A DNA stretch of 64,000 bases from an uncultured Clostridiaceae bacterium (GCA_947169155.1 CAMVON010000003.1:5910-69909), one strand, 5' to 3'. Counted from the stretch's first letter, positions 6,204 to 43,750 are shown. Numbers and translations: made by a program. Notes: generated from the letters alone by a model not told the origin.

Positions 6204-6204
6204 A

Positions 6205-9202: not shown

Positions 9203-9802
9203 ATGAAAAAAGAAAATAAATTTATAATTGCAATAATACTAATTGCTATTATAACTCTTTCAGGAGTTATTTTTTTTGCACTTAAATACCCATATATAAA
9301 AGCAAATAAAGATGCTGATAATATACAAGTTGGAGATAATACAGACTTAGAAGATACACCACTTAAAGATATTGAGCAAGATATAATTCATTATGATGAT
9401 GAAATAGGAACACTTACTATTCCTGATATTTTACTTGACAATGCACCTATTAGAGAAAGTGTTGAATTAACTACACTTAAAGAAACAATAGGACATTTTC
9501 CTTCTACTTCTATTTATGAGGGTAATGTTGGTCTAGCATCTCATAATTCAGGAGAACAAGGAGATTTCTTTAAAAACTTAAAGAAAATAAAAATCGGTAG
9601 TGAGATATTTTATCAGACTAACTATGGAACTAAAAGATATGTTGTAACAGTAAAAGAAATAATTGATGAGGAAAATTGGTCTTATTTGCAACCTACTGAA
9701 GATAATAGAATCACTTTAATTACTTGTGTTGCAGGACAAAGAGAAAAACGACTTTGTGTTCAAGCAGTAGAATCTTCTGAAGGTATGGATTACGGACAAT
9801 AA
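9203..9802 (+). CDS. sortase (membrane-anchored cysteine transpeptidase)
   Basis: N-terminal TM; conserved His (LASHNSG), TLITCV active-site Cys motif (TLxTC) and downstream Arg. Confidence 0.75.
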   Translation: MKKENKFIIAIILIAIITLSGVIFFALKYPYIKANKDADNIQVGDNTDLEDTPLKDIEQDIIHYDDEIGTLTIPDILLDNAPIRESVELTTLKETIGHFPSTSIYEGNVGLASHNSGEQGDFFKNLKKIKIGSEIFYQTNYGTKRYVVTVKEIIDEENWSYLQPTEDNRITLITCVAGQREKRLCVQAVESSEGMDYGQ

Positions 9803-10895: not shown

Positions 10896-10957
10896 TAAAT
10901 AGATATAAGGCACTTAACTAAGGTTAGGTGCTTTTTCTATGGAAAGGAATTGATAAA

Positions 10958-13573
10958 ATGTTAAAAGTAAATAGTAAAAGAATAATAGCAATGTTAATGT
11001 TAGTATTAACATTATTTTCTACTTTAAGTCCTAGTGTATTTGCTACTGAAATAAGCTCTGCAAATATTGAAAATAACGGAGATGTTGAATGGCATTTACA
11101 ATATTGGAATGAGGATAAAAATGTATGGTCTTATGTTACAACAACATATACTACTTATAATGAAGGTGGAAGAAGTTATCCTGCTTATTGTGTAAATAGA
11201 GAATATCCAGGTGTTGGAGAACTAGATGGCTATACTGTTGATGTCAATGCAAGTGTTACTGATGTTTTAGGAAATGTGCAAATATGGAGAACAATTATAA
11301 ATGGATTTCCTTATAAATCAGCAGGAGAACTTGGCTTAGCAAATGACCTAGAGGCTTTTCAAGCAACAAAACAAGCTGTATATTGTATTCTATATGGTTT
11401 TGATCCTGCTAGTCGTTTTAGAAGTGCTGAACAAGGTGCTGATGACAGAGGCGATGCAATAAGAACAGCAATAATAAATATGGTTAATACAGGAAGATAC
11501 GGAGCTCAAATGCCTTCTGATCCTGATATAACACTTTCTAATTCAGGAAATTTATATGAGGATGGAAATTACTATACTCAAAAAATAAATGTTTCAAGCA
11601 CAGTAGATATGGCAAATTATACAATTACTGCGACTGCTAATTTACCTGAAGGAACAATTATTACAAATTCAAATGGAACACAAACAAACTCTTTCAATGG
11701 AAATGAAAGTATGTATGTTAAGATACCTAAATCTCAATTAGGACAAGACATTTCTAATGCAATAATAAATGTGCAAGGAAAATGTAAAACATATCCTGTA
11801 TTCTATGGGCAAACTAGAATGGCTGAAACTCAAAATTATGCACTAACTTACGATCCTTTTGGCGATGGTGTTGGTCGTGCCACTTTAAATATTAAAACTA
11901 ACACAGGAAAAGTTGTTGTTAATAAAACAGATGATGAAACTAAACAGCCTATTGAGGGAGTAAAATTCTCTTTAAAGAAAACTGATGGAACAGTTGTAGG
12001 AACAGCTACTACTGATAAAAATGGTGTTGCTACCTTTGAAAAGTTATATCAAGCAAATTATAAATTAGTTGAGGTAGAAACGAATCCTAAATATATTCTA
12101 AATAAAGTAGAATTTGATGTCCCTGTTGAATATAACAAGACAGCAAAAGTTGATGTTGAAAATGAACACAAAAAAGGCAATATAAAGGTTTATAAAATTG
12201 ATAAAGATAACAATAGAGTTGTACTAGGAAATGTTGAATTTGACCTATTCTCGCACGAATTTGATAAGGTTATTGGAACATACCATACAGATGTAAATGG
12301 AGAACTTGAAATTAAGGATTTAAGAATAGGAGATTATTCACTAATCGAAAAGAAAACGAATAGATGGTACAATCTTGCTGAAGATACAGACATTGAGGTT
12401 GAATGGAATTTAACAAAAGAACTTCAAATAGAAAATGAGCTAAAAAAAGGCTCTATAAAAATTATAAAAGTTGATGAAGAAGATCACGAAGTAAAACTTG
12501 AAAATGTTAAATTTAAAGTTATGGATAAAGACAATAATGTTTTAGAAGAACTAACAACAGATAAAAACGGAGAGGCTGAAACTTCTAATTATCCTGTAAG
12601 AGATTTTTCAGAATTAAAAATACAAGAAGTTGAAACATTAGATACTTATGTTTTAGATGATGAAATTCATACTATTACACTTGAAGAAAATCAAATAAAA
12701 AATGTTACTTTTGAAAATGAAAAAATCAAAGGACAAATTGAAGTAACAAAAGTAAGTGCTAATGACAATAAATTAACAGGAGATAAAAAAGGTACTCCAC
12801 TTGAAGGAGCTATATTTGAAGTATATAATTCGAACGATGAATTAGTTGATACTCTAACTACTGATAAAGATGGTAAAGCTATTTCAAAATTACTTGTAAA
12901 GGGAGAATATCACTTAAAAGAAGTTGACTCAGGATCACCTTATTACTTAATAAATTCAGATATATTTAAAGCTGAAATAAAAGAGCATAAAGAAATTGTT
13001 GGTGTAAATGTTGATGAGGAAAGTGTTGACATTGAGGTTGAAGTTGAGAAAAAAGGTTTTATTGAAACACAATCAAAAGACAGTATTTACTATAATTTCA
13101 AAAATATTAAAAATAAATCAAATGTTGCATTAGACAATTTTACTTGGCAAGATACACTACCTACACAAGCATTAAGAGTTGATAGAATTTATACAGGTAC
13201 TTGGAATGAGGATTTAGAATATTCAATTTGGTATAAAACTAATAAAAATGACTATAAAATGTTAGTAGATAAACTAAGTACACAAGTTAATAACGAAATA
13301 AGCTTTAAGACTGCAGATTTAGAAGAAGATGAATTCATTACTGAATATGAATTTAGATTCGGAACTGTTAAAGTAGGCTTTTCAGAAGTAGATGCACCTG
13401 TGCTTTACTGTGATATGTTAGAAGGTTTAGGTAATGGTTTTGTATTTACTAACTATACAAAAGTATTTGGAACTTATGAGGATAAATATGTTGAAGATAC
13501 TGATGAATGGACTACTGTTACTTATTTCAAAGAAATAGAAGTTACTCAAAAACTACCTAGAACAGGTTGTTAA
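10958..13573 (+). CDS. large surface adhesin: candidate thioester (TIE-like) N-domain, 4-5 CnaB/SpaA-type repeats, C-terminal LPRTG motif
   Basis: Signal peptide after a likely ATG at 10958. YCVNREYPG and FQATKQAVY segments resemble thioester Cys/Gln motifs. Repeated …VVVNKTDDETKQPIEGVKFSL…TTDKNGVATF… units. Ends …KLPRTGC-stop. Confidence 0.65.
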   Translation: MLKVNSKRIIAMLMLVLTLFSTLSPSVFATEISSANIENNGDVEWHLQYWNEDKNVWSYVTTTYTTYNEGGRSYPAYCVNREYPGVGELDGYTVDVNASVTDVLGNVQIWRTIINGFPYKSAGELGLANDLEAFQATKQAVYCILYGFDPASRFRSAEQGADDRGDAIRTAIINMVNTGRYGAQMPSDPDITLSNSGNLYEDGNYYTQKINVSSTVDMANYTITATANLPEGTIITNSNGTQTNSFNGNESMYVKIPKSQLGQDISNAIINVQGKCKTYPVFYGQTRMAETQNYALTYDPFGDGVGRATLNIKTNTGKVVVNKTDDETKQPIEGVKFSLKKTDGTVVGTATTDKNGVATFEKLYQANYKLVEVETNPKYILNKVEFDVPVEYNKTAKVDVENEHKKGNIKVYKIDKDNNRVVLGNVEFDLFSHEFDKVIGTYHTDVNGELEIKDLRIGDYSLIEKKTNRWYNLAEDTDIEVEWNLTKELQIENELKKGSIKIIKVDEEDHEVKLENVKFKVMDKDNNVLEELTTDKNGEAETSNYPVRDFSELKIQEVETLDTYVLDDEIHTITLEENQIKNVTFENEKIKGQIEVTKVSANDNKLTGDKKGTPLEGAIFEVYNSNDELVDTLTTDKDGKAISKLLVKGEYHLKEVDSGSPYYLINSDIFKAEIKEHKEIVGVNVDEESVDIEVEVEKKGFIETQSKDSIYYNFKNIKNKSNVALDNFTWQDTLPTQALRVDRIYTGTWNEDLEYSIWYKTNKNDYKMLVDKLSTQVNNEISFKTADLEEDEFITEYEFRFGTVKVGFSEVDAPVLYCDMLEGLGNGFVFTNYTKVFGTYEDKYVEDTDEWTTVTYFKEIEVTQKLPRTGC

Positions 13574-14151: not shown

Positions 14152-14775
14152 ATGAGTAAATTATTTGAAGAATACTCAGCAGATGAAATAGATGATGCAA
14201 AAGGAAAAATAAAAAGAATTGAAATTAGAAAAAAAGAATTTAATTTACTTAAAGAAAAATTAGAAAAACACTTTAATTTTGAAATTACAGAGTATATAAT
14301 AGCTGATATTTTAGATTATGAAACATATCATCATACTTGTTTAATGATAAATTTAGCTGTTGTTAATAATAGAATGACAGTAGTTGATGGAGAAATATTA
14401 AAAGCAGGACTAAAAATATTATTTAATATTCAAAGTAGTAATGATAGGTTTGACAGGAGTGTTTATATGGATACTTTCGATTTTGATGTTTGGTATGAAA
14501 AGTACAGTACACTTGAAATTGTTGACCTAAAGAAACATCTTTCAAAAGAAGATTTTGATTTACTAAAGAGCTTAAATATTGAAATTAAGGATAAGGTATA
14601 TACAGAGCAAGAATTTGAAATCTTAGATATGGAACTTCTAGGGTATTATATTGATGAAGATATGGATGAAGAAGAACTTAAAGAATCTAAGCCACTTCCT
14701 GAAGGAATTACAAGAGAAGAATACAATAAATTACTTGAAAAACTAAGCAATATATCAAGTGAATATAATTTTTAA
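14152..14775 (+). CDS. acidic hypothetical protein (cargo region)
   Basis: 207-aa ORF with RBS GAAGGAG; no recognisable motif. Confidence 0.5.
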   Translation: MSKLFEEYSADEIDDAKGKIKRIEIRKKEFNLLKEKLEKHFNFEITEYIIADILDYETYHHTCLMINLAVVNNRMTVVDGEILKAGLKILFNIQSSNDRFDRSVYMDTFDFDVWYEKYSTLEIVDLKKHLSKEDFDLLKSLNIEIKDKVYTEQEFEILDMELLGYYIDEDMDEEELKESKPLPEGITREEYNKLLEKLSNISSEYNF

Positions 14776-14801
14776 TACCAGTAGTTAGACTGGTATTTTT
14801 T
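14775..14801 (+). terminator. rho-independent terminator
   Basis: ATACCAGT agttag ACTGGTAT followed by TTTTTT. Confidence 0.55.
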
Positions 14802-14892: not shown

Positions 14893-15111
14893 ATGATGGA
14901 AACAAATAAATACTTCAATCAGTATATAGATAGACTTGATGTAAATCAAAATGCACTAGAAAAACTTAAAGCTAACGAGATTATTACTTTAGGAAAATTA
15001 AGCAATTATAAAAAATCTCAATTAAAAGATTTTGGATTACAACAAAATGAAATAAGTAAAATTGAAGTTGAACTTGAATTATTAGGCTTATCATTAAAAG
15101 GCTCTTTATAA
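14893..15111 (+). CDS. small protein resembling the RNA polymerase alpha-subunit C-terminal domain (HhH DNA-binding)
   Basis: 72 aa. The pattern L.V..N.L..L…I.TLG.L…….L….G…EI..IE..L..LGLSL parallels alpha-CTD (LELTVRSANCLKAE…[20 protein letters not shown]). Confidence 0.45.
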   Translation: MMETNKYFNQYIDRLDVNQNALEKLKANEIITLGKLSNYKKSQLKDFGLQQNEISKIEVELELLGLSLKGSL

Positions 15112-15125
15112 TAGGAGGATAAATA

Positions 15126-15734
15126 ATGAGTCATAAAAGTTTTTGGGATAGTTTAGGAGATACGATTAGCTTTATTATTTTTATAAAATATGTACTACCA
15201 ATATTGATAATTTTTATTATTGGATTAGTAGCATATCAAGGCATATATGGATCAAGTATGGATAAAAAGTATGAGAATATGGAAAATGTTATTGTTACTT
15301 CTAAATTAGTAAGTACAGTTTGTGATTATGCAAGAGAAGTTTATAACAAAGAAGTTTTTTCTGAAGTAAAAGGAGATCCTGATAATTCAGATCCTATGAG
15401 TATGTATTCAGTTGAAGTAGATTATGTTTTTAATGATAATACAAAAACAGCTGAAGAATACGATTCTTTAATTAAAGATGAACTAACTAAACTATACAAT
15501 AAACTTAAAGGAAAGGTAATTGAGAAAGACCAAATATTTGCTGAAACTGATAGAAAAAGTATAGGATTAAGTTTCTATATTCCAAACAATAACGGTGGAA
15601 CTTCTATATTGTGTTCAGCCTCATTGATATATAACAAAGATATTGGATTTGTTGAAGAATCCTATCAAAAAGAGCTTAGCAGAACAATAGTAACAAGTGA
15701 AAGAATTGAAGATGCTATAAAAAGGAGCTATTAA
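15126..15734 (+). CDS. N-terminally membrane-anchored hypothetical protein
   Basis: 202 aa, one TM near the N-terminus, no recognisable motif. Confidence 0.5.
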   Translation: MSHKSFWDSLGDTISFIIFIKYVLPILIIFIIGLVAYQGIYGSSMDKKYENMENVIVTSKLVSTVCDYAREVYNKEVFSEVKGDPDNSDPMSMYSVEVDYVFNDNTKTAEEYDSLIKDELTKLYNKLKGKVIEKDQIFAETDRKSIGLSFYIPNNNGGTSILCSASLIYNKDIGFVEESYQKELSRTIVTSERIEDAIKRSY

Positions 15735-15758
15735 AATAATTTAGGAGAATGATGAAAT

Positions 15759-18700
15759 ATGATTAATAATGATTTAACTTTCTTTACAAACGAGCCTGAA
15801 AGAAATTTATATGATAGATTTAGTAAAATACTTAACAGAAATACACAATTTTTTGATGTTCTTGTTGGATATTTTAGAGCAAGTGGATTTTATTTAATGC
15901 AAGATGCTTTGGATAAAGTGGAAAAAACAAGAATTCTAATAGGTATAAATACTGATAAACAAATTGTTGATATGTTTGAAGAAACACAAGGCGAAATAAA
16001 GGAATTTAGTTTGTCAAATAAAGAATCTATAACTGAATATAAAAAAGAGCTTGAAAAAGAATTTGAAAAGTCTGAAGATACAGAAAATGTTGAAAAAGGT
16101 GTAAATAAGTTTATATCATTACTAAAAGAAGGAAAGCTTGAAATTAGAATATATACTAAGCAACCTATACACGCAAAAATTTATATTATGAGAGATTTTA
16201 AGGATAGTGCTGATTTTGGTAGAGTAATCACAGGATCAAGTAACTTTTCTCAATCAGGATTAGTAAATAATCTTGAATTTAATGTTGAATTAAAAAATTC
16301 AGCAGATGTTCAATTTGCTTTAGAAAAATTTGAAGAATTATGGAAAGAATCTGTTGAAGTAAATCAAGAATGTGTTGATACAATAGAAAATAAAACTTGG
16401 GTTAGATCAGACATAACACCTTATGAAATGTATGTAAAATTTTTATATGAATATTTTAAAGAAGAAATAAACGATGATTTAATTGATAGTTCTAAAGACT
16501 CATCAAGATATTATCCTGATAGCTTTGTACCTTTACAATATCAGAAGGATGCTGTAATTCAAGCAAAAAGAATATTAGAAAAACATAATGGTATTTTTAT
16601 TTCTGATGTTGTTGGTCTAGGAAAAACTTATATATGTGCTATGTTAGCTCAGGAATTAGATCATAAAAAACTAATACTTTGCCCTCCTGTTCTAGTGGAT
16701 TATTGGGAAAATGTAATGTTTAATTTTGGAGTTAGAGGTGTAAAGGTAGAATCAGTTGGAAAGTTAGATAAAATTATTGAGAATGGTACAGAACAATACG
16801 GATATGTTTTTGTCGATGAATCACATAGATTTAGAAATGCTGAAACTGAACAATATAGACAATTACACGAAATATGTGTTGGAAAAAAAGTTATTCTTAT
16901 TTCTGCAACACCACAAAATAACTATAATACAGATATTGCTAATCAATTATATTTATTCCAATCAAAAAATAAATCTACCATAGTAAATGCAAGAAACTTA
17001 GAATTGTTTTTTGATAATCTTAGAAAAAAGGTTAGATCTTATGAGAAAGATACTGATGAATATAAACAAGCAATAAGAGAAACATCTGAAGAAATAAGAG
17101 ATAAAGTTTTAAGAGAAGTAATGATTAGAAGAACTAGGACAGAAATTCAAAAAACTTATGCTGATGATTTAAAGAAACAAGGATTAAAATTTCCAAAGGT
17201 TTCTGATCCTATAAAACTAATTTATGAATTTAGCGAAAATGCTGAAGAAGTATTTGAAACAACAATTCAAAAAATAACAGAGTTAAATTATTCAAGATAT
17301 AAACCTTTAACTTATGTTAAAGATAATAAACTACAATCTAGTCAAAGATCTTTATTAGTAGGTCAAGCTAATATGGGTGGATTTATGAAAGGTATTCTTG
17401 TAAAAAGATTAGAAAGTAGTAAATATGCTTTTGAAATGACTTTAAATAGGTTTATAGATTCTTATAATGAATTTATAAAAATGTATAAAGAAAATGGTGT
17501 CGTTTGGATTAGTAAAAAACTTAATGTTGCTGAGTTATTAGATAATGATGATACTGAGAAATTAGAACAAGCTGTAAAGAATGAAGATGCTTTTAAGTTT
17601 AATGCAGAAGATTTTAACAAAGATTTTATTATAGACTTAGAGAAAGACTTAGCAATATTACAAAATTTAAAATATATTTGGGATACAGTTAAAACTGATG
17701 ATAAACTAGAATATTTTATAAATGAATTAAAAAATAATAAAGACTTAAAACATAATAAACTAATTATATTTACTGAATCTAAAGAAACAGCTGAATACTT
17801 AACTAAGAGTATTGAAAATAGACTTAATGAAAATGTTATTGTATTTAGTGGATCAATGCCTGATAGTATTAGAACATCTATTAGAGCAAACTTTGATCCT
17901 AACTATAACAAAGATAAACAAAAGAATGATTATAGAATATTAGTTACTACTGATGTACTTGCTGAAGGTATGAATTTACATAGAAGTAATGTAATCATAA
18001 ATTATGATTTACCTTGGAATCCTACTAAAATAATGCAAAGAGTTGGAAGAATTAACAGAGTTGGAACAGCACATAATGAGATATATGTTTATAACTTCTT
18101 CCCTACAAGCAAATCAAATGAACAGATGTCATTGGAAGAAAACATTATTACTAAAATGCAAATGTTTCACGATATTTTAGGAGAAGATTCAAAATTCTTA
18201 ACAGATGATGAGGAAGTTTCTACACATGAGTTATTTAGAAGAATGACAACAATTATTGATGATGAAGATGAAGAAATTAGCTCAGAACTTTCTTATTTAA
18301 AGACAATCCGTGATATTAGGGATAAAGATAAAGAATTATTTGAAAAGATTAAAAACTATCCTAAGAAAATTAAAATCGGAAGAAAAAAAGACAATATAGA
18401 TGGACTAATTACTTTCTTTAGAAAGGGATATTTAAAGAAGTTCTATATTTCAAGTGTTGAGGATACAAAAGAAATTACTTTTGAACAAGCTATTGATTAT
18501 GTTAAAGCAACAAAATCAGAACAAAGCAAAAAAGTTAAAAGCGATTATTATGATTTACTAAAAGCAAATAAACTAGCTTTTGAAGAATCAGAAAAAGAAG
18601 ATAATAGTAATGAAATAACTGCTGTGAATAAAAAGGGATCTAGTAATGCTAAAAATATTATTAAAGTGCTTAAAGAGTGCTTAAAAATGGAATCAAGTTT

Positions 18701-18956
18701 TACTGATATAGAAATTGATAATATAAATAAAATAATAAACTTATTAGAAAATGGCGAATTGCCTGTTAGAATAGTTAAAGATGGAAATAAAGCCATAAAG
18801 AAGATAACAGGAGTTAATGATATTATAAAATTCTATAAAGAATTGGAACTTATGATACCTAAAGTTTATCTTGAGCAAGAAACAAAAGTTGAGGCAAATA
18901 ATAAGAAAATAAGTAAAAATGAAAGAGAAATAATCTTGTCAGAATACATTTTTTAA
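15759..18956 (+). CDS. PLD-family (HKD) nuclease domain fused to an SNF2-family helicase/translocase
   Basis: Single HKD motif IHAKIYIMRD…GSSNFSQSG near residue 140. SNF2/SF2 motifs SDVVGLGKT (I), VFVDESHRFRN (II, DESH), LVTTDVLAEGMNLH (V), QRVGRINRVGT (VI). Confidence 0.85.
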   Translation: MINNDLTFFTNEPERNLYDRFSKILNRNTQFFDVLVGYFRASGFYLMQDALDKVEKTRILIGINTDKQIVDMFEETQGEIKEFSLSNKESITEYKKELEKEFEKSEDTENVEKGVNKFISLLKEGKLEIRIYTKQPIHAKIYIMRDFKDSADFGRVITGSSNFSQSGLVNNLEFNVELKNSADVQFALEKFEELWKESVEVNQECVDTIENKTWVRSDITPYEMYVKFLYEYFKEEINDDLIDSSKDSSRYYPDSFVPLQYQKDAVIQAKRILEKHNGIFISDVVGLGKTYICAMLAQELDHKKLILCPPVLVDYWENVMFNFGVRGVKVESVGKLDKIIENGTEQYGYVFVDESHRFRNAETEQYRQLHEICVGKKVILISATPQNNYNTDIANQLYLFQSKNKSTIVNARNLELFFDNLRKKVRSYEKDTDEYKQAIRETSEEIRDKVLREVMIRRTRTEIQKTYADDLKKQGLKFPKVSDPIKLIYEFSENAEEVFETTIQKITELNYSRYKPLTYVKDNKLQSSQRSLLVGQANMGGFMKGILVKRLESSKYAFEMTLNRFIDSYNEFIKMYKENGVVWISKKLNVAELLDNDDTEKLEQAVKNEDAFKFNAEDFNKDFIIDLEKDLAILQNLKYIWDTVKTDDKLEYFINELKNNKDLKHNKLIIFTESKETAEYLTKSIENRLNENVIVFSGSMPDSIRTSIRANFDPNYNKDKQKNDYRILVTTDVLAEGMNLHRSNVIINYDLPWNPTKIMQRVGRINRVGTAHNEIYVYNFFPTSKSNEQMSLEENIITKMQMFHDILGEDSKFLTDDEEVSTHELFRRMTTIIDDEDEEISSELSYLKTIRDIRDKDKELFEKIKNYPKKIKIGRKKDNIDGLITFFRKGYLKKFYISSVEDTKEITFEQAIDYVKATKSEQSKKVKSDYYDLLKANKLAFEESEKEDNSNEITAVNKKGSSNAKNIIKVLKECLKMESSFTDIEIDNINKIINLLENGELPVRIVKDGNKAIKKITGVNDIIKFYKELELMIPKVYLEQETKVEANNKKISKNEREIILSEYIF

Positions 18957-18971
18957 TGGGGGTATGTAAAA

Positions 18972-21900
18972 ATGGCGATAGCAAGTGATAAAACAAAAGA
19001 ATATTTACAAATGCTTGAAGAAAAATTTGATATAAACAATTTTTGTGAATTTATAAAAGACTTATTGAACTTGGAAAATAGCAATATTGTAAATGGTCAA
19101 AAGCAAAAGGCTACAAGCGAACAATATAAAAATTATATAGACACCACTCAATTATATGCAAAATACGAAGACAATAAGAGAAGAACAATAGGTGTTTTAG
19201 TTATAAAATTACAAGATAATAAACTTCCCGCAAATGCTAGAACTTTGCAAAGAAATTACATAGCACACTTGCTAGATGCATATAGTTTAGATGCCTCACT
19301 ATCTGCAATATATAGTGAAACTGATGATACTTGGAGATTATCTTTTGTAAAACAAGAATTAGATTTTGGAGATGGAAAATTAAAAGCAAAATTTACTCCT
19401 GCAAAAAGATATTCATATCTTTTTGGAAAAGATGAGCCTAATCATACAGCTAAAGAACAATTATTAGAATTATTAGAGAATAATAATAAGCAATATTCTA
19501 TTGAAGAAATAGAAGAAAAATTTAGTGTTGAAAAAGTTACAAAAGATTTCTTTGAAAATTATAAAGAAAACTATTTAAAATTAAAAGAAACATTAGAGGC
19601 AAACGAGGAATTTATTAGTGAGGCTAATAGATGTGATTTTACTTCAGAAGAATTTACAAAAAAACTTATGGGACAAATTGTTTTTATATATTTCTTACAG
19701 AAAAAAGGATGGCTGGGTGTTAGATTAGTTCCTCAGTTATTAAGTATGGAAGAATACAATAACATCTATACCAAAAGTGATATTATTCAAAAGAAAATTT
19801 TAGATAAATACTACATTACTTTTAATGGTAATAAGAAAATTAAAAAAGAATTGTTAGAAAAATACAACGATAATAAACAAGAAATTGAGAGTTTATCAGA
19901 TATATTTACTAATACAAGTTTTGATAATAAATGGGGATCAGGACAAAAGAGATTTATTAGAGCTATATTTGATAATTGTATAAATAGAAAAAAGAACTTT
20001 TTTGATGATTATTTAGAGCCATTTTTCTATGATGGACTTAATCATAAAAGAAAAAATCAATATTTTAGCTTGTTTAATTGCAAAATACCATTTCTTAATG
20101 GTGGATTATTTGAGCCATTAGACAATTATCAATGGGAAATAGCAAGATTTAATATTGATAATGAAATATTTTCTAATAAAGAAGAAACAGGAATATTAGA
20201 TTTCTTTGATAGATATAACTTTACAATGAACGAAGAAGAACCTCTTGAAAAAGATGTTGCAGTTGATCCTGAAATGTTAGGAAAAATATTTGAAAACTTA
20301 CTAGATGTTAAAGACAGAAAATCAAAAGGAGCTTTTTATACTCCAAGAGAAATTGTGCATTTTATGTGTCAAGAAAGCATTGCTAATTTCTTAGTAAATA
20401 AAGTTGGAGTAAAATACGAAGAAATTAAAGAATTTATACAATATGGAGAGATGATAAGAGATATTGACTTAAAAGATGCAACTAAAGAGTCTCACATAAT
20501 AGGAGATTCAATATTCAATAACATTATTCAAATAGATAAGGCACTTGAAAATATAAAAATTGCAGATCCATCTGTTGGATCAGGTGCATTTCCTTTAGGA
20601 ATATTAAACGAAATAGTAAAAATAAGAGATATATTAACTTCATATATGTTAATTTATAACAGACTTGGGTTATTTGGAAAGAAATATACAGAAGAACAGA
20701 TAACTAATAATAAAAGAAGTATTTATAATATAAAATGGAATACAATAAAAAACAGTATATATGCAGTTGATATTGAGAATAGTGCAGTAGATATAACTAA
20801 ATTAAGATTATGGCTTTCAATAGTTGTAGATCAAACTGATGATCCTGAGCCTTTACCAAACCTAAATTGTAAAATTATGCAAGGTAATTCCTTAATAGAT
20901 GAATATAACGGAATAAAGCTAATTGATGAAAAATTTATTGAAGAATTAAAAGATCGTGAGAATGTAAAATTAAATGATGGTGGAAGAATAAAAAGCAAAA
21001 ATAAGTATATTGATGTTTCAGCAAATCAAATACAATTTGGAGATGGGCAGAAAAAAGCCCAAATTGATGATTTAATTAACTTGAAACAAGAATTATACGG
21101 AGAAAATGAGCCTAGTAGAAAAAAATTACTACTTGAAAAAATAGAAATAGCTAGAAATGAATTATTACGATTAAACTTTGCTGGAACTAATAAAGAAAAA
21201 GAACTTTTAGAAATAGACAAATCACACAATAAACCTTATTTTGCTTGGATGCTCGAATTTATTGAAGTTTTTATATCAAATAATGGGTTTGATATAGTAA
21301 TAGGAAATCCTCCGTATGTTGGAGAAAGTGGAAATAAAGACATTTTCCGACCTATTGCTAATACAGAGTTTGGTAAAAGATTCTATATGGGCAAGATGGA
21401 TTTATTTTATTTCTTTTTCCATAAAGGAATTGATATTTCAAATAATATGGGAGAAATTGCTTTAATAACTACAAACTATTATACTACTTCTGATGGTGGT
21501 AAAAAACTAAGGAAAGATTTAAAAGAAAGAACATATATTAGAAAATTTATAAACTTTAATGAAATTAAAGTCTTTGATTCTGCTAGAGGACAACATAATT
21601 CTATTATGTTTTTAACAAAAAATAAAGAAGAAAAAATAAAATGCAATGTAGTATTATGTAATGGAAAGGGCAATGCATCAGCAAACGATATAAAAAATAT
21701 CTTAATTGGTAATTATAAAAATAATATAAAAATTGAATTAGACCAAAATAATATTTATGATGGAGATAACTATTATATAAGACAAACAGGGGTACATTCA
21801 GTGGGAAACATATCCTCAGTTGAAACTATATTAGATAAGATGTCTAAATGTAAAAAACTTTCTGAGAACTATTTTGTAAATCAAGGTGTTGTTACTGGAT

Positions 21901-22685
21901 GCGATACATTAACAAAAAAATATATAAACAGTTTTAACATACAAAATCCAAGAGTAAATGAAGGAATTTATGTTTTAGATTTAACTAATCCTGATGATGT
22001 TGAAACTGCAAACAAGTTTAAAGAAGGAAAGGCATTATTAAGAGATTTTTATAAAAATTCAGATATTGAAAAATGGGTTTCTTCTTCAGAGGCAAAAAAG
22101 AAATTGATTTATTTTCAAGGACAAATTGTAAAAGAAAAATACCCTGATATATATAATCATTTATTAAGATTTAAACCTATTCTTGAAAAAAGATTAGAAA
22201 CATATAATGAACATTATCATTGGACGGCAATTCATAGATCAAGAGAGGAAAAAATATTCTGTGGAGAAAAAATTGTTGTACCTTATAGAACAAAGAAAAA
22301 TACATTTGCTTATAATAACATAGAATGGTTTTGTAGATCTGATGCTTATATCATTACTGCAAAAAATGAAAAATCAAATTTAAAAGAATTGCTTGGAATT
22401 TTAAATTCAAAAGTATATTATCTATGGTTATGTTATAGGGGAAAAAGAAAAGGAGAGACTTTAGAATTATTCCAAAAGCCATTAACAGAAATTCCAATTG
22501 TTACATTATCAGAAGATGAAAAAGAAAATGTAATTGATATTGTAAACAAAATTATAAATCAGAAAGCATTAAATAAAGAATGTGATGTTACAGAATTAGA
22601 AAAACAAATAGATAATATTATTTATAATGCATTAAAACTAAATCCTGAAGAAATAAAAATAGTGGAGGAAAACTATAATGAATGA
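18972..22685 (+). CDS. large gamma-class N6-adenine DNA methyltransferase with ~500-aa N-terminal domain and C-terminal target-recognition-like region (Type IIG / PglX / DrmMI-like)
   Basis: AdoMet motif I IADPSVGSGAFPLG, catalytic motif IV VIGNPPYVG downstream (gamma order). 1237 aa. Conserved FIYFLQKKGWLG segment typical of large type IIG/IIL-like enzymes. Confidence 0.85.
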   Translation: MAIASDKTKEYLQMLEEKFDINNFCEFIKDLLNLENSNIVNGQKQKATSEQYKNYIDTTQLYAKYEDNKRRTIGVLVIKLQDNKLPANARTLQRNYIAHLLDAYSLDASLSAIYSETDDTWRLSFVKQELDFGDGKLKAKFTPAKRYSYLFGKDEPNHTAKEQLLELLENNNKQYSIEEIEEKFSVEKVTKDFFENYKENYLKLKETLEANEEFISEANRCDFTSEEFTKKLMGQIVFIYFLQKKGWLGVRLVPQLLSMEEYNNIYTKSDIIQKKILDKYYITFNGNKKIKKELLEKYNDNKQEIESLSDIFTNTSFDNKWGSGQKRFIRAIFDNCINRKKNFFDDYLEPFFYDGLNHKRKNQYFSLFNCKIPFLNGGLFEPLDNYQWEIARFNIDNEIFSNKEETGILDFFDRYNFTMNEEEPLEKDVAVDPEMLGKIFENLLDVKDRKSKGAFYTPREIVHFMCQESIANFLVNKVGVKYEEIKEFIQYGEMIRDIDLKDATKESHIIGDSIFNNIIQIDKALENIKIADPSVGSGAFPLGILNEIVKIRDILTSYMLIYNRLGLFGKKYTEEQITNNKRSIYNIKWNTIKNSIYAVDIENSAVDITKLRLWLSIVVDQTDDPEPLPNLNCKIMQGNSLIDEYNGIKLIDEKFIEELKDRENVKLNDGGRIKSKNKYIDVSANQIQFGDGQKKAQIDDLINLKQELYGENEPSRKKLLLEKIEIARNELLRLNFAGTNKEKELLEIDKSHNKPYFAWMLEFIEVFISNNGFDIVIGNPPYVGESGNKDIFRPIANTEFGKRFYMGKMDLFYFFFHKGIDISNNMGEIALITTNYYTTSDGGKKLRKDLKERTYIRKFINFNEIKVFDSARGQHNSIMFLTKNKEEKIKCNVVLCNGKGNASANDIKNILIGNYKNNIKIELDQNNIYDGDNYYIRQTGVHSVGNISSVETILDKMSKCKKLSENYFVNQGVVTGCDTLTKKYINSFNIQNPRVNEGIYVLDLTNPDDVETANKFKEGKALLRDFYKNSDIEKWVSSSEAKKKLIYFQGQIVKEKYPDIYNHLLRFKPILEKRLETYNEHYHWTAIHRSREEKIFCGEKIVVPYRTKKNTFAYNNIEWFCRSDAYIITAKNEKSNLKELLGILNSKVYYLWLCYRGKRKGETLELFQKPLTEIPIVTLSEDEKENVIDIVNKIINQKALNKECDVTELEKQIDNIIYNALKLNPEEIKIVEENYNE

Positions 22686-22893
22686 AATAAAATATGAAAT
22701 AATTGAACAATTAGGTGTTCTATCTGAAACTGAAAAAGGATGGAAAAAAGAATTAAATCTTATTAGTTGGAATGAAAGAGAGCCAAAATATGATTTAAGA
22801 GATTGGTCAGAAAATCACGAAAAAATGGGAAAAGGCATTACTTTATCTAAAGATGAAGTTGATAAATTAAAGAGCATTTTAAATACTTTATAA
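22678..22893 (+). CDS. small protein (possibly YdbC/PC4-like ssDNA-binding family, tentative)
   Basis: 71 aa; start ATG overlaps the MTase stop (ATGAATGA); GWKKELNLISWNEREPKYDLRDW segment. Confidence 0.4.
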   Translation: MNEIKYEIIEQLGVLSETEKGWKKELNLISWNEREPKYDLRDWSENHEKMGKGITLSKDEVDKLKSILNTL

Positions 22894-22903
22894 GGAATTA
22901 AAT

Positions 22904-23410
22904 ATGATTGTTTTTATAAATGGAACTTATGGTGTAGGAAAAACACAAGTAGCAAATAAAATAAATCAATTATATGGGGATAAATCAAAAGTTCTAGATC
23001 CTGATCAATTATGGACTGACGAATTGAAAAAGAATTGTACTATTATTTTTGGAGATGGAGCATATCCTCAGAATAATAAGAAATTTCTACAAATATTAAA
23101 GAATAGATTAGATAAAGAAATTAAAGAATATAGAGGTATTCTTATTATTCCTATGACAGTAGCAGAAGATTTGAGTTATAATACACTTATATCACCGTAT
23201 AACAATACTATAAAGCATTTTATTTTAACAGCTAGGGATGAAATAGTAATAGAAAGAATACATAAGGATAAATTAAGAGATCAATCATTTGCTATTTGCA
23301 ATATGGAAATAAATAATAAATATATAAAAAATATAGAAAATGCCACATTTATTGACACATCAGATATGAGTATTGAAGAAGTGGCAAAATATATTATTGA
23401 AAGGATTTAG
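22904..23410 (+). CDS. P-loop NTPase, TmrB-like / AAA-kinase fold
   Basis: N-terminal MIVFINGTYGVGKTQVANK Walker A, closely resembling the TmrB-family start MIIWINGAFGSGKTQ. Confidence 0.5.
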   Translation: MIVFINGTYGVGKTQVANKINQLYGDKSKVLDPDQLWTDELKKNCTIIFGDGAYPQNNKKFLQILKNRLDKEIKEYRGILIIPMTVAEDLSYNTLISPYNNTIKHFILTARDEIVIERIHKDKLRDQSFAICNMEINNKYIKNIENATFIDTSDMSIEEVAKYIIERI

Positions 23411-23591: not shown

Positions 23592-23624
23592 TAATAAGAG
23601 AGTAGTATATTTAATTACTACTCT

Positions 23625-24332
23625 CTATTCTTCTCTAAAATACTCTACAAGCAGAGTTATAAAGTATTTAGGTGTTACTGTATCAGGTCTAAATTTTAAT
23701 GAAAAAACGGAGCAAAGGTTATCAATAGACAGAGATCGATTTAATGTGTCTATTGAAGTTCTAATACTCCATTTAACTGTTTTCGGACTTATATTGTATA
23801 GTTTTGCTACCTCTGAATATAAGTCTTTTATATTATTTAATAAATAAGGTTGTTTATATGCTATATTTATTGCTGAAATTAGTTGTTTTCCTCTTGTAGA
23901 AAAAACATTTAATCTTAATTCTGTCAATATTTCTTTTAATTCTTTTTGATTTATTTCTTCATTTTTAATAGGTACTTCCTTTATAGTTTTTAATATGTAC
24001 TCAAAGTCAGCAGGTTTAGGGATTACTCTAAAAACTTGTGCTGTATTATATAGCTTATGCAGATATTCTATACTTCCTGAATATACAATTATATTACATT
24101 TTGATCTTTCTTCAGAAAATCTACCAATAGTGTTTATTACATCAAGCCCACTTATTTTAGGCATATCTAAATCTAATAAGAGAACATCAGGTTTAGATTC
24201 AAAATAATTCTTTACAGTTTCCTCCCCATCTGTAGCACAAGATACAATTTTAATATCTTCATCATTTGTTAGAAATTCAAAACAACTTTTACATAGGAAT
24301 TTGTTATCCTCTGCAATCATAACCTTAATCAT
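23625..24332 (-). CDS. orphan response regulator: receiver domain plus Spo0A-like C-terminal DNA-binding domain
   Basis: REC motifs (MIKVMIAEDN…LLLDLDMP, Asp ~54). C-terminal AKLYNISPKTVKWSIRTSID and …RPDTVTPKYFITLL parallel the Spo0A_C signature (AKQYNTTASRVERAIRHAIE / KPTNSEFIAM). No histidine kinase nearby. Confidence 0.6.
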   Translation of the reverse strand: MIKVMIAEDNKFLCKSCFEFLTNDEDIKIVSCATDGEETVKNYFESKPDVLLLDLDMPKISGLDVINTIGRFSEERSKCNIIVYSGSIEYLHKLYNTAQVFRVIPKPADFEYILKTIKEVPIKNEEINQKELKEILTELRLNVFSTRGKQLISAINIAYKQPYLLNNIKDLYSEVAKLYNISPKTVKWSIRTSIDTLNRSLSIDNLCSVFSLKFRPDTVTPKYFITLLVEYFREE

Positions 24333-26335: not shown

Positions 26336-27535
26336 ATGTATAATACTCGTGAAAAAGGCTCTATTTATTATAACAAAGCAAGAGATAACTGGACTGTTCT
26401 TTACTACGAAACAGATCCTAAAACAGGACAGAAAAAGAGAAAAAGCAAAAGTCAGCCAACAAAAGAAATGGCAGAAAAATTTTTAACTTCTCTAATGTAT
26501 CAAAGAAAAAATCCTTTATATATGAAAAAACATAAAATTTGTCTAGGAGATTATATGAAATTAAGAACTAAAACAAAACTTGAAACAAATATAATTTCAG
26601 AGAATTCACTAGGTAGAATAAATCAAACATTAAATATAATTAAAAAATCTTATTTATACAATAAGAAGATTGATGAAATTACTACTGAAGAAATACAAAA
26701 TTATTTTAATACTTTAACAGATTACAGTAGTTCTACTATAAATAAGATTTTTAGCGAGTTTAGGCAGATTTTTAATTATGCTTTTTCACAAAATATTATA
26801 TTAGCAAATCCTATGGTAGATATAATAAAACCTAAAAGCAAGATTATAAATAAGCCTTTGAGAGCTTTAACTCTTGATGAAGAAGAAAATTTAGTAAATT
26901 ATTTAACAGGAATAACTTTAAAAAAATGTAGATATAGAAATGTGTTTTTAATTCAAATGTTTACAGGAATGAGAATCGGCGAAGTGTTGGCATTGAAAAC
27001 TACTGACATTGACCTTGCTCATAACCTTATAACTGTTGAAAGAACAATTAGTAAAGACAAAAATTCTAAAGTAATAATGGGTAAAACAACAAAAACTTAT
27101 GCAGGACAAAGAGAATTGCCTGTACCTATTTTAATAAGAGATTTTATAATAGAACAAATGCAAATTGCAAATAAATCAAATCACAAAACAAAATTATTAT
27201 TTAGGAATTCACTAGGAAATTTAGCAAATCCTGCACAGGTTAATACAGCATTTAAAGAAGTTATAAAAGATTTAGGTTACGAAGATATTACTTCACATAC
27301 ATTAAGGCATACTTTTGCAACAAGATGTATTGAAAGTGGAATGAAACCTGTTGTAATTCAAAGACTTATGGGACATACAAATATACAAATAACATTAAAT
27401 ACTTATACATCTATTTTTAATAAATATAAAGAATCAGAAATAACTAAAGTAAATAACTACTATTTAGAGAATAATATTATTACAGATACACATAAACAAA
27501 TTAGTGATTATTCAGTAGTAGTGATTGAAGAATAA
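26336..27535 (+). CDS. int: tyrosine recombinase / integrase (copy 1)
   Basis: N-terminal SAM-like DNA-binding domain; catalytic R (MFTGMRIGE), HxxR (HTLRHTF), Y (LNTYTSI). Confidence 0.85.
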   Translation: MYNTREKGSIYYNKARDNWTVLYYETDPKTGQKKRKSKSQPTKEMAEKFLTSLMYQRKNPLYMKKHKICLGDYMKLRTKTKLETNIISENSLGRINQTLNIIKKSYLYNKKIDEITTEEIQNYFNTLTDYSSSTINKIFSEFRQIFNYAFSQNIILANPMVDIIKPKSKIINKPLRALTLDEEENLVNYLTGITLKKCRYRNVFLIQMFTGMRIGEVLALKTTDIDLAHNLITVERTISKDKNSKVIMGKTTKTYAGQRELPVPILIRDFIIEQMQIANKSNHKTKLLFRNSLGNLANPAQVNTAFKEVIKDLGYEDITSHTLRHTFATRCIESGMKPVVIQRLMGHTNIQITLNTYTSIFNKYKESEITKVNNYYLENNIITDTHKQISDYSVVVIEE

Positions 27536-27548
27536 GGAGAGATATTTT

Positions 27549-28694
27549 ATGAGTAGAAATCAAGGAGCAAGTTTATTTTATAGAAAAGAAAGAGATACTT
27601 GGATTGTTCAATATTATACAAATGGAGATAAAAGAAGTAAGAAAAGTTTTAAGGAAAAGCAGGAGGCTGAAAATTTTTTAGAAGAAATAATGTTTAAGAA
27701 AGATAATAAAAAATATGTTAGAAACAATGGAATGACTTTAAGAACAATAATTGTTAGTAATATAAATAAAAAGTTTGGATCAGGTATTATTTCTGAAGGA
27801 CAACTTATGAGAACAAATAAAACAATAAAACAAATGCCTGAAGAACTATTAAATACTAATATTGAAGAAATTACTGAAGAAGATATACAAACCTATTTGA
27901 ATTCTTTAAAAAATTACAGTAATTCAAGCATTAAAAAGTTTTATGAGTTATTAAGTCAGGCTTTTAGGATTGCATTTGAAAGAGATTATATAAAATTAAA
28001 TCCTATGAAAAATGTTCTTAGACCTAAAAGCAAGAAAAAAGATAAAAAAGTTAGAGCATTGACTGTTGATGAACAAGAAAGATTTACACAATATTTATTA
28101 GATCAAAATATAAAAGATACACCTTATAGAAATGTATTCTTAGTTCAAATGTTTACGGGGATGAGAATCGGCGAAGTGTTGGCATTGAAGACTACTGACA
28201 TTGACCTTGCTCATAACCTAATTACAGTTGAGCATACAATATCAGTTGATGCAAAAGAAAAAACTATACTTAAAGAAACACCTAAATCATTTAATGGAAT
28301 GAGAGAGATACCGATGCCTTCGTATTTAAAACCTTATATTATGGAGCAAATGAAAATTGCTAATATAAATAATCATAAGGAAAATTTATTATTTGTAAAT
28401 AGAAATAAAGGCTATGTGGATCATAGAATAGCAAATAAAATATTAAAAAAAATGTTAGAGGAACTGGATATAGAAGGCATATCTACCCATAGTTTAAGAC
28501 ATACTTTTGGAACAAGATGTATTGAAAGTGGTGTACGAGATGTTGCATTACAAAGAATAATGGGACATTCTTCAATTACAGCAACACTTAATAACTATGT
28601 AGATGTATCTGAGGAGTTAAAAGAAAGCGAACTAGAAAAAGTATATAGTTATTATAGAGAAAATATGAATATTGACATAGATGATTTTGACTGA
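27549..28694 (+). CDS. int: tyrosine recombinase / integrase (copy 2, paralog of copy 1)
   Basis: Likely ATG at 27549 (AAGGAGAG 7 nt upstream); the track ORF starts at 27525, overlapping copy 1. Same catalytic residues (MFTGMRIGE, HSLRHTF, LNNYVDV). Confidence 0.85.
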   Translation: MSRNQGASLFYRKERDTWIVQYYTNGDKRSKKSFKEKQEAENFLEEIMFKKDNKKYVRNNGMTLRTIIVSNINKKFGSGIISEGQLMRTNKTIKQMPEELLNTNIEEITEEDIQTYLNSLKNYSNSSIKKFYELLSQAFRIAFERDYIKLNPMKNVLRPKSKKKDKKVRALTVDEQERFTQYLLDQNIKDTPYRNVFLVQMFTGMRIGEVLALKTTDIDLAHNLITVEHTISVDAKEKTILKETPKSFNGMREIPMPSYLKPYIMEQMKIANINNHKENLLFVNRNKGYVDHRIANKILKKMLEELDIEGISTHSLRHTFGTRCIESGVRDVALQRIMGHSSITATLNNYVDVSEELKESELEKVYSYYRENMNIDIDDFD

Positions 28695-43326: not shown

Positions 43327-43750
43327 AAATAGGATAACCAAGTAAAAATATCATTACTTGGTTATTTTTTTTACAAAAACTATATACTTTACATAAAATT
43401 TGTGATATAATAATGGTACCTAACATTTATGTTGTATCAATTTTGTGTACATGAATGGTATTTATAATTATGTAACTTTTTAGTTGCAAAATGCACTAAA
43501 TACTTGAAATTTACATAAAAATATGATATAATATAGGTGTAATAATATTGGTCGATATTTGAAGTTATTGCTTCGAATGAGTTAAGTGTAAAATATAATG
43601 TCTAGAGAAATCTAGAGTTTTGTCCGTTATAACACGTTTGCTTATTCTGCATGACTTCATTTTTTTGTACTCAATATTGTTATAGGTTTGGACGTTAAGA
43701 CGTTCAATATTCCATAAATTTAAAATAATAGGAAAGGAAGGAGAATAATT

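Follow-up and report, generated by a model that had tools for sequence, protein, structure and literature searches.

Among characterised enzymes, those closest in joining a PLD-family nuclease to an SF2 motor are SauUSI and CglI/NgoAVII. SauUSI, a Type IV enzyme of S. aureus (PDB 7CLG), begins with a PLD-family nuclease that is joined to an SF2 helicase-like ATPase, forms a stable dimer via its nuclease domains and, following ATP-driven translocation, cleaves away from its site (PMC7913695). It recognises 5mC/5hmC through a C-terminal target-recognition domain (TRD) of its own and accordingly cuts DNA that is modified. CglI/NgoAVII, which are ATP-dependent Type II-like R-H-M systems, are built from several subunits, in which a PLD nuclease cooperates with an SF2 translocase, and have a separate methyltransferase (PMC5861437). 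The Type ISP enzymes LlaGI and LlaBIII unite a Mrr/PD-ExK nuclease, an SF2 motor, a gamma-class m6A methyltransferase and a TRD in single polypeptides, modify one strand of asymmetric sites and cleave by translocation and collision (PMC3553950). Class 1 DISARM likewise brings together an SNF2 helicase with a PLD nuclease and an m6A methyltransferase. In type-2 BREX-related (BR)/Hma systems, the predicted effector beside an N6-methyltransferase is a Swi2/Snf2 helicase with an HKD endoDNase fused at its N-terminus (PMC12839542).

In our window (the whole 64,000-nucleotide stretch of DNA analysed), two intact genes, p1 and p2, follow each other across a spacer bearing a GGGGG ribosome-binding site:

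15759–18956, plus strand: p1, HKD(PLD)-SNF2 helicase-nuclease, 1065 aa (ORF, Pfam, PADLOC, Foldseek)
18972–22685, plus strand: p2, N6-adenine methyltransferase-TRD protein, 1237 aa (ORF, Pfam, PADLOC, PDB profiles)
14774–14797, plus strand: terminator-like hairpin upstream of the pair (pattern match only)
23597–23626, no strand assigned: bidirectional terminator-like hairpin after the cargo genes (pattern match only)

ORF calls and motif searches returned both genes, the 15-nt gap and every motif that an earlier note on this DNA had quoted. IHAKIYIMRD (aa 137–146), GSSNFSQSG (159–167), GLGKT (286–290), DESH (353–356) and QRVGRINRVG (760–769) each occur once in p1, as do DPSVGSGAFP (532–541) and NPPY (779–782) in p2. 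The two hairpins possibly bracket a transcription unit at 14893–23410. No meaningful inverted or direct repeats were found around p2, and a phase-variable TRD shufflon was rejected.

The first protein places one HKD motif N-terminal to a complete SNF2 core, as the earlier note had read it:

15846–16343, plus strand: single PLD/HKD nuclease domain, aa 30–195 (Pfam PLDc_2 6.8e-12, above its cut-off)
16167–16259, plus strand: HKD catalytic residues H138-x-K140 and G159-S-S-N162 (motif)
16530–18065, plus strand: SNF2-type SF2 ATPase core, aa ~258–769 (Pfam, motifs, orthologue alignment)
16614–16628, plus strand: motif I, GLGKT (motif)
16815–16826, plus strand: motif II, DESH (motif)
from 16902, plus strand: motif III, SATP (motif)
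18036–18065, plus strand: motif VI, QRVGRINR (motif)
18246–18953, plus strand: C-terminal region, aa ~830–1065 (conserved alignment columns, no Pfam match)

Beyond PLDc_2, p1 matched Helicase_C (1.8e-21), SNF2-rel (1.4e-7) and ResIII, well beyond chance; the SNF2-rel_dom score of 31.4 bits (cut-off 24.9) identifies an SNF2-family SF2 ATPase. H138, K140 and G159–N162 are invariant in an alignment of 13 diverse orthologues, and SNF2 motifs I, II, III and VI are all invariant among p1 orthologues. Many p1 homologues also match RE_NgoFVII (PF09565), and sequence comparison of the HKD domain with PLD nucleases of solved structure gave just a marginal Zucchini match (E 0.17). In Foldseek searches, the AF2 model of p1, which is poor (pLDDT 58), notably over the C-terminal region, was closest to SWR1, Mot1, Chd1, SsoRad54 and RapA, and also matched SauUSI (7clg). 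By its conserved columns, the C-terminal region is a candidate docking or DNA-binding region. The best PADLOC model, 'HKD+Snf2' C3a139, covered p1 at full length (1e-45); it goes back only to a catalogue of accessory families associated with type III CRISPR and represents no characterised system (PMC6546367), so we discarded it as an identification.

The second protein is laid out as follows:

18972–19496, plus strand: N-terminal REase-like domain, aa 1–175 (REase-like fold, eroded triad)
19164–19214, plus strand: eroded catalytic triad D67...K79-L-Q81 (residue alignment)
19497–20318, plus strand: helical connector, aa ~176–449 (FxVEKVTKxFF, YFLQKKGW and IPFLNGGLF motifs)
20319–21581, plus strand: gamma-class m6A methyltransferase domain, aa ~450–870 (Pfam, PDB profiles, motifs)
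20328–20357, plus strand: motif X, GAFYTPREIV (motif)
20565–20594, plus strand: motif I, DPSVGSGAFP (motif)
21306–21317, plus strand: motif IV, NPPY (motif)
21582–22682, plus strand: hypervariable TRD, aa ~871–1237, with TaqI_C at 1070–1176 (Pfam TaqI_C, homologue comparison)

Consistent with the gamma-class methyltransferase and specificity-domain-like tail described in the earlier note, p2 matched Eco57I (7e-32) and TaqI_C (5.7e-13) well beyond chance, the PADLOC model REase_MTase_IIG (7.8e-125), and PDB profiles of CamA (2e-50), M.BseCI (2e-40) and PglX (3e-11). Among MmeI-specific Pfam domains, only a weak MmeI_Mtase match was found. The tail varies strongly: in 51 of 59 homologues that are at least 80% identical over aa 1–870, the TRD is below 50% identity or cannot be aligned; it is swapped between cores that are nearly identical, as in the specificity evolution of Type I, IIG and BREX systems. 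The N-terminus of about 500 aa, to which no function had been given, resolved instead into a degenerate REase-like domain and a helical connector common to MmeI, PglX and HsdM N-terminal domains, with a Firmicute-specific insert at aa ~251–317. The MmeI-like D-X11-E-x-K signature (D...ExK) is complete in only 21 of 170 relatives (12%). Other residues of the N-domain are invariant (R90/R94, W121-R122-x-S124 and TPAxRxSxLxGxxExxHT, aa 142–159), and this retention despite loss of the triad suggests that the domain was taken into a new role. Because D67, D/E107, K/R127, E155 and H158 are 77–94% conserved, it may also retain a non-canonical active site. Since the PD-ExK-type triad of p2 is eroded, the nuclease of the module most likely resides in the HKD domain of p1, as had been supposed.

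Are the two genes a unit? p2 lies directly 3' of p1 in every one of the 33 orthologous loci whose sequence extends far enough downstream; these come from Firmicutes, Bacteroidota, CPR, Nitrospirota, Proteobacteria and archaea. The gap is about −4 to +15 nt in most, the exceptions being three loci with inserted DNA. Starting from p2, the pair was kept in 13 of 15 loci; one locus (L088) held p2 only, and degraded loci were found at L087 and in H. volcanii. Thus, the pairing is not accidental, and near-obligate adjacency with tight spacing points to one functional unit. No third conserved large gene (DrmA, DrmB or other) appeared among the orthologous loci examined, and no fused p1-p2 Rosetta-stone protein among the matches listed. 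These comparisons support a conserved, self-contained module, and the predicted co-occurrence without DrmA/DrmB held. The diagnostic p2 N-domain is borne by about 1,000 clusters at 50% identity. Flanks of the orthologous loci are heterogeneous, and many pairs sit in chromosomal, defence-island-like surroundings with no visible mobile-element genes; several loci carry YhcG/DUF1016, AAA_13, AAA_21, Abi_C or SLFN, accessory defence genes typical of restriction-modification (R-M) operons.

We found no biochemical characterisation of the pair in the literature; parts of it have been described. HKD-SWI2/SNF2 fusions in R-M contexts were noted in the comparative genomics of Iyer/Aravind (PMC3417536), and REBASE and PADLOC already place p2-type methyltransferases under 'Type IIG' (PMC5867850), which makes the architecture less novel than first assumed. 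A distant sister family (25–33% identity) has the same p1-p2 layout and includes Synechocystis slr6050 and Haloferax HVO_A0079. For slr6050 (M.Ssp6803IV, on pSYSX), GA(m6A)GGC was assigned indirectly, via REBASE, Eco57I similarity and elimination of other candidates; the authors themselves note that genetic and biochemical proof is missing. A knockout of slr6050 failed to segregate (PMC6105098), as would be expected if a restriction partner were active. The N-domain of this Synechocystis protein failed to align with p2 by BLASTP. Homologues of HVO_A0079 have been assigned asymmetric m6A motifs such as CCRGAG (PMC5867850). Pin17FIII of Prevotella intermedia, a 1117-aa 'Type IIG' protein encoded downstream of an SNF2 helicase and shown in E. 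coli to methylate GGYGAB (PMC5608340), probably belongs to the same family as p2.

Does the pair belong to a known class? Type ISP, whose functional parts it shares, was rejected: the pair has two ORFs, a PLD/HKD nuclease on an SNF2-type motor, and no LlaGI or LlaBIII chain among the PDB matches listed for p1 or p2. Thus, the 'split Type ISP-like' unit of the earlier note holds as a functional analogy and fails as ancestry. Like Type IIG/IIL enzymes, p2 has gamma-class m6A motifs (X, I, NPPY) and a TaqI_C TRD in one chain; unlike the MmeI family, it has lost the competent-type triad and has an obligate HKD-SNF2 partner, which MmeI-type enzymes lack. True Type IIG membership thus fails on the triad, and p2 is better described as the descendant of an MmeI/Type IIL-like R-M fusion whose nuclease was lost. 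p1 shows the HKD-Swi2/Snf2 fusion of type-2 BR/Hma systems. BR systems are defined by the DUF499 ATPase HmaC, and type 2 also by DUF3780; neither gene occurs in the window operon or the orthologous loci, and the HmaA model covers only part of p1 (4e-26), so BR/Hma was set aside (PMC12839542). A DISARM remnant was likewise rejected: the PLD is fused to the helicase, the NCBIfam DrmD model NF038317 scored p1 at 160.4 bits against an equivalog cut-off of 610 in a partial match (aa 446–876), and the best DrmMI model matched p2 partially at 8.5e-23, far behind REase_MTase_IIG. No DUF1998/DrmA-like gene was present among Pfam-scanned window neighbours or the large flanking ORFs of orthologous loci, in agreement with the claimed absence of DrmA and DrmB (DUF1998). 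ARMADA fails for absence of its required YprA/DUF1998 helicase ArmC (PMC13463889). The homology searches proposed earlier thus separate the pair from DrmD, DrmMI and LlaGI/LlaBIII and relate the p2 connector to PglX and MmeI. Compared with SauUSI, the pair has a partner methyltransferase and a motor that is SNF2-type by sequence, recognition would presumably be provided in trans by the MTase-TRD protein, and the target would be unmodified DNA.

What could the mechanism be? We propose, with a probability of roughly 0.6, that the pair is a two-subunit, ATP-dependent R-M system in which p2 reads and marks DNA and p1 cuts it. p2 would be the recognition and modification subunit, its variable TRD reading a short, probably asymmetric site where the gamma-class domain would place m6A to mark self DNA. 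p1 would be the restriction subunit and, having a single HKD motif, would probably dimerise to form one PLD active site, as in Nuc, BfiI, CglI and SauUSI; SauUSI (PMC7913695) and CglI/NgoAVII (PMC5861437) are precedents for a dimeric PLD nuclease with an SF2 motor. On an unmethylated site, p2 would form a complex with p1 and recruit or activate it, and SNF2-type ATP hydrolysis would then drive dsDNA translocation or looping, with cleavage away from the site. Counting against this proposal are the relatives with a full triad, the 77–94% conserved residues of the p2 N-domain, the poor p1 model, the p2-only and degraded loci, and the distance of the Synechocystis family, whose motif assignment is itself indirect. 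A bolder reading, to which we give slightly less than even odds, is that such pairs form an unclassified class of ATP-dependent R-M enzymes in bacteria and archaea: cleavage would have moved from an MmeI-like R-M fusion to a dimeric motor of the PLD-SNF2 kind, and the fusion's dead nuclease domain, having gained invariant R/W/S/H residues, would now serve in coupling or activation.

Alternatively, p2 could only mark self, as in BREX or DISARM, while p1, by itself or helped by host factors, stops or destroys incoming unmodified DNA by a route other than classical site-triggered cleavage, for example by loading at DNA ends or ssDNA or by blocking replication. We consider this unlikely: PglZ, BrxC, DrmA, DrmB and DUF499 are absent from the window and the orthologous loci examined, and an intact nuclease fused to a motor is most simply a restriction subunit.

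Less likely still, p2 could be a self-sufficient Type IIG/IIL enzyme beside a merely adjacent helicase-nuclease, p1 acting for instance as a processive degrader that boosts restriction, much like the SNF2-type helicases of BREX type 3 (BrxHII) and DISARM (DrmD). In p2 and in most relatives, other residues stand in place of the catalytic E and K (K79 and Q81 in p2), and the conserved adjacency described above argues against separate genes. Ouellette et al. likewise recognised no endonuclease-like N-terminus in relatives (PMC5867850).

If the two-subunit R-M reading is right, a large and phylogenetically wide-ranging gene set that now goes by "Type IIG restriction-modification enzyme" or "N-6 DNA methylase", with relatives in Synechocystis, Haloferax, Prevotella and Parabacteroides, would be half of a motor-driven system whose p1-type partner is passed over in annotation pipelines and methylome studies. 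This would affect predictions of genetic tractability and of which gene to remove to overcome a restriction barrier. It would also reveal a natural replacement of a PD-ExK by a PLD nuclease within one R-M lineage, and give mechanistic studies a further prokaryotic SNF2 motor whose trigger is defined. Should the unclassified-class reading also hold, hundreds to thousands of 'Type IIG' entries in REBASE, PADLOC and DefenseFinder would be mis-typed and have a distinct cleavage mechanism.

In the window, a low-GC, Spo0A-encoding Firmicute carries the module as horizontally mobile cargo of an element that, by its gene content, is conjugative: a VirD4/TraG-type T4CP, TrbL (TrbL_4), VirB4, an M23 peptidase, MT-A70 and a sortase with adhesin are followed by sigma/HTH_16 genes, Xis and two integrases. 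A Tn916-type element would have a conjugation module of FtsK-like Orf21, Orf16, Orf15 and Orf14, and its cargo between that module and orf9/7/8-xis-int. On the right, the regulatory and recombination genes (sigma r4, HTH_16, a Xis-like gene and Int) resemble those of Tn916, and the left end lies beyond the window; Tn916-family membership is not demonstrable, so that the tet(M) cargo slot invoked earlier is a positional analogy only. As cargo, the pair would defend the element's host and also stabilise the element through post-segregational killing. That it mainly serves the element, as an addiction module or in an epigenetic or entry-exclusion function, is very improbable: its cargo position here and in another integrative element and the addiction-like, non-segregating Synechocystis knockout (PMC6105098) would fit, but many orthologues lie in chromosomal defence-island-like contexts, and addiction, as a side effect that R-M systems generally have, is no alternative mechanism.

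Neighbouring genes were considered as components. One overlaps the p2 stop by 8 nt:

22678–22893, plus strand: PC4-like gene (ssDNA-binding fold), 71 aa (Pfam PC4 1.2e-12)

It is kept directly after p2 only in L005, L035 and L081–L086, is absent from distant orthologous loci and was rejected as a conserved third component, being restricted to a Clostridia lineage. Upstream, the genes of 72, 202 and 207 aa lack conservation even in L081, an element nearly identical to this one, and were likewise excluded. Two names given earlier to neighbours were not confirmed: the 'alpha-CTD-like' match is sub-threshold (E 0.0076), and the 168-aa 'TmrB-like' NTPase is a borderline AAA_18 match. The mobility foreseen in the earlier note is borne out: the same pair, with a helicase 85% identical (P0017), sits in a different integrative element, and relatives occur on plasmids as well as among the contigs in the viral collection IMG/VR.

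We judge p1, an HKD(PLD)-SNF2 helicase-nuclease, and p2, an N6-adenine methyltransferase with a target-recognition domain (TRD), to be an uncharacterised restriction-modification (R-M) architecture, one that comparative genomics reveals but that has been wrongly binned as Type IIG. It is already known in so far as it has been noticed computationally and its methyltransferase binned by REBASE; RefSeq labels the pair "SNF2-related/helicase-related protein" and "N-6 DNA methylase". The two genes are co-directional, and the 15-nt spacer between them contains a GGGGG Shine-Dalgarno sequence. Each motif quoted from the two proteins in the earlier note was found exactly once, confirming that observation.

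Genes and Pfam domains of the pair
15759-18956, + strand: p1 open reading frame, 1065 aa, intact
p1 aa 30-195: PLD-like domain
p1 aa 332-469 (approximate): SNF2/ResIII
p1 aa 649-769: Helicase_C
18972-22685, + strand: p2 open reading frame, 1237 aa, intact
p2 aa 594-868: Eco57I-type N6-adenine methylase
p2 aa 1070-1176: TaqI_C specificity domain

Do the two genes form a unit? We scanned one genome per species for p1 orthologues and found 38 loci with full-length proteins of 40–62% identity, spread over Firmicutes, Bacteroidota, CPR/Patescibacteria, Nitrospirota, Proteobacteria, Verrucomicrobia, Caldisericota and archaea. A p2 orthologue lies directly 3′ of p1 in 33/33 loci with enough downstream DNA (the remaining 5 stop too near a contig edge to judge); most of the 33 have gaps of about −4 to +15 nt, and three contain inserted DNA. 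A reverse search with the N-terminal half of p2 against the IMG/VR viral-contig collection recovered 15 loci, 13 with a full-length p1 immediately 5′, one degraded and one with p2 alone. Distant p2-like genes (24–28% identity) are also preceded by HKD-SNF2 genes (25–33% identity); in one such pair (L104), proteins of 1135 and 1100 aa are encoded 13 nt apart. No third gene is common to the orthologous loci, and the genes just 3′ of the pair vary (AAA_21, AAA_13, Schlafen/AlbA_2, YhcG/DUF1016, Abi_C, DUF4062). Such downstream genes are the accessory repertoire of Type I R-M operons. At the degraded locus L087 (1637-7795), what is left of p1 is a C-terminal stretch of 179 aa; two p2 copies in tandem come next, and the contig ends within the second.

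What could such a pair do? We propose, with a probability of about 0.6, a two-part system in which p2 would mark and recognise DNA and p1 would translocate and cut it. The p2 TRD would bind a short asymmetric site, where p2 would methylate one adenine as a mark of self; at an unmethylated site, p2 would instead recruit or activate p1. With its single HKD motif, p1 would dimerise to build one PLD active site, an arrangement established for Nuc, BfiI, CglI and SauUSI, and SNF2-type ATP hydrolysis would power translocation or looping, the DNA being cut away from the site. Type III, ISP, IIL and BREX methylases as a rule modify asymmetric sites on one strand; should p2 do likewise, cleavage would likely need two sites or converging complexes. 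By analogy, p1-p2 would work like a Type ISP or Type I/III enzyme divided over two genes. Among the closest characterised enzymes, SauUSI is likewise a PLD-SF2 fusion but its own TRD reads methylated DNA, and in CglI/NgoAVII the PLD nuclease and its partner SF2 motor are separate. When membership was tested, p1-p2 could not be placed in DISARM, Type ISP or BR/Hma.

In an alignment of 13 diverse p1 orthologues, HKD residues H138, K140 and G159-S-S-N162 are invariant, as are SNF2 motifs I, II, III and VI. The sole full-length PADLOC match of p1 is "HKD+Snf2 (C3a139)" (1e-45), a model drawn from a catalogue of genes adjoining type III CRISPR loci (PMC6546367) rather than from a characterised system. 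The DrmD, HmaA, BrxHII, DpdE and RapA models cover the p1 ATPase core only, and every NCBIfam score on p1 was far under its cut-off (DrmD 160 versus 610, "phospholipD_antiphage" 156 versus 1100). The AF2 model of p1 was poor (pLDDT 58), and Foldseek with this model returned SWI2/SNF2 remodelers, RapA and SauUSI (7clg, a PLD-helicase restriction enzyme). Action resembling BREX or DISARM, with no site-triggered cleavage, appears unlikely. DUF1998, DrmA and DUF499 are absent among the large flanking ORFs of orthologous loci, which are mutually unrelated. The solved structures closest to p2 in a profile search are CamA (2e-50), M.BseCI (2e-40) and PglX/BrxX (3e-11 and 4e-8).

Does p2 cut DNA by itself? 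Its top PADLOC model is a REBASE-derived "Type IIG" family (8e-125). That p2 is an autonomous Type IIG enzyme to which p1 is no more than an accessory is a reading that we consider decidedly improbable. The MmeI catalytic triad is D70-X8-E80-x-K82; a similar D-X11-E-x-K, in the hairpin at aa 67-81, is found in some p2 orthologues of the alignment and missing from most. The triad is complete in 21 of 170 family members (12%), position 79 being K (33%), E (23%) or else Y, Q, N, H or R, and p2 of the window reads D67...K79-L-Q81. p2 also failed to qualify as a catalytically complete Type IIG enzyme. Elsewhere in the N-domain, R90, R94, W121, R122, S124, R146, S148 and T159 are essentially invariant, and E155 and H158 are conserved in more than 90%. 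The triad being mostly lost and these other residues near-invariant, p2 seems to descend from an MmeI-type R-M fusion whose canonical nuclease site decayed, the domain itself being retained for some other function.

AF2 folded the N-terminal 480 aa of p2 with an overall pLDDT of 72, reaching 80–94 across most of aa 10-130. About 1,030 clusters at 50% identity contain the N-domain (E up to 1e-10); among the matches listed, it starts near residue 1 in 150/150 representatives, most of which are about 1,100–1,300 aa long, the shorter ones looking like fragments. An insert of about 70 aa in the helical connector (aa ~251-317) is present in Firmicute orthologues and missing from most other phyla. 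The C-terminal TRD is hypervariable, with less than 50% identity or no possible alignment in 51 of the 59 homologues that share 80% or more identity across aa 1-870. Such divergence on near-identical cores is a signature of specificity switching.

An integrated conjugative element carries the pair as cargo, with conjugation genes on one side of it and regulator, Xis and integrase genes on the other. 5′ of the pair lie genes for a VirD4/TraG-type coupling protein, TrbL, VirB4, an M23 peptidase, an MT-A70 methylase, a sortase and a thioester/SpaA adhesin; 3′ of the pair are a PC4-like gene, an AAA_18 NTPase, an opposite-strand Spo0A-like regulator, sigma/HTH_16 regulators, an Xis-like gene and two tyrosine integrases, beyond which housekeeping genes (ACPS, MetRS) begin. 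The earlier note had placed the pair in the slot held by tet(M) in Tn916: the analogy is one of position only, and the conjugation module is not clearly of Tn916 type.

Other features of the element
6184-6753, + strand: MT-A70 family methyltransferase, within the conjugation module
9203-9802, + strand: sortase, between conjugation genes and R-M cargo
10928-13573, + strand: thioester-domain/SpaA-repeat adhesin, 881 aa, between conjugation genes and R-M cargo
14774-14797: terminator-like hairpin
22678-22893, + strand: PC4-like (ssDNA-binding fold) gene, 71 aa, overlapping the p2 stop by 8 nt
23597-23626: terminator-like hairpin
23625-24332, − strand: response regulator with Spo0A_C DNA-binding domain, between cargo and sigma/HTH_16 regulators
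26336-27535 and 27525-28694, + strand: two overlapping tyrosine recombinase genes in tandem, at the element's right end

The two hairpins possibly enclose a transcription unit (14893-23410), and the MT-A70 protein is likely an orphan, anti-restriction-type methylase distinct from p2. In L081, a nearly identical element found in a different metagenome, the p1, p2, PC4-like and AAA_18 genes are retained and the upstream part differs; a further pair (P0017, helicase 85% identical), again followed by a PC4-like gene, belongs to a very different integrative element, which has Phage_rep_org_N and DnaC-like genes. Thus, the module travels from one mobile element to another. That it chiefly serves its carrier, as an addiction module, fits this cargo position yet has very little probability. 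The PC4-like gene occurs directly 3′ of p2, at 65–100% identity, in Clostridia-type loci only (L005, L035, L081-L086) and may be a lineage-specific third component. In Clostridium guangxiense (L035, 17558-21058), a protein of 1166 aa encoded just 3′ of p1-p2-PC4 matches the Pfam family of eukaryote-type RNA-dependent RNA polymerases (PF05183, 1e-14).

Fusions of HKD and SWI2/SNF2 ATPase domains in R-M contexts were noticed by Iyer and Aravind, as cited in PMC3417536. HKD-SF2 effectors are carried by PbeA/Dnd-related systems (PMC10853773) and by "Type-2 BR" systems, which additionally require DUF499 and DUF3780 (PMC12839542) and have a REase-bearing relative, Hma (PMC11232893). Our literature search found no paper characterising a two-gene HKD-SNF2 and methyltransferase system; the breadth of this biochemically unstudied family and its decayed nuclease make it a worthwhile experimental target.

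Relatives do provide indirect experimental data. Slr6050 (1100 aa), encoded on Synechocystis PCC 6803 plasmid pSYSX, is M.Ssp6803IV, to which GA(m6A)GGC was assigned indirectly, genetic and biochemical evidence lacking according to the authors; its knockout could not be segregated, and the paper does not mention a helicase-nuclease neighbour (PMC6105098). We found an HKD-SNF2 homologue 5′ of slr6050, the two being separated by an inserted VapBC toxin-antitoxin (L112, pSYSX 43696-51129), and an active restriction partner would cause such non-segregation. slr6050 represents a distant sister family of p2, as BLASTP aligns the connector and methyltransferase and not the N-domain. On Haloferax volcanii pHV4 (L113, 73368-78957), the order is reversed relative to the window: HVO_A0079, flanked by IS4 elements, precedes a 777-aa PLD-domain protein. 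This "Type IIG" protein was reported inactive, its authors recognising no endonuclease-like N-terminus, and asymmetric m6A motifs such as CCRGAG were assigned to its homologues (PMC5867850). Finally, Prevotella intermedia Pin17FIII (1117 aa), which methylates GGYGAB if E. coli expresses it by itself and is encoded 3′ of a SNF2 helicase (PMC5608340), is probably a member of the p2 family.
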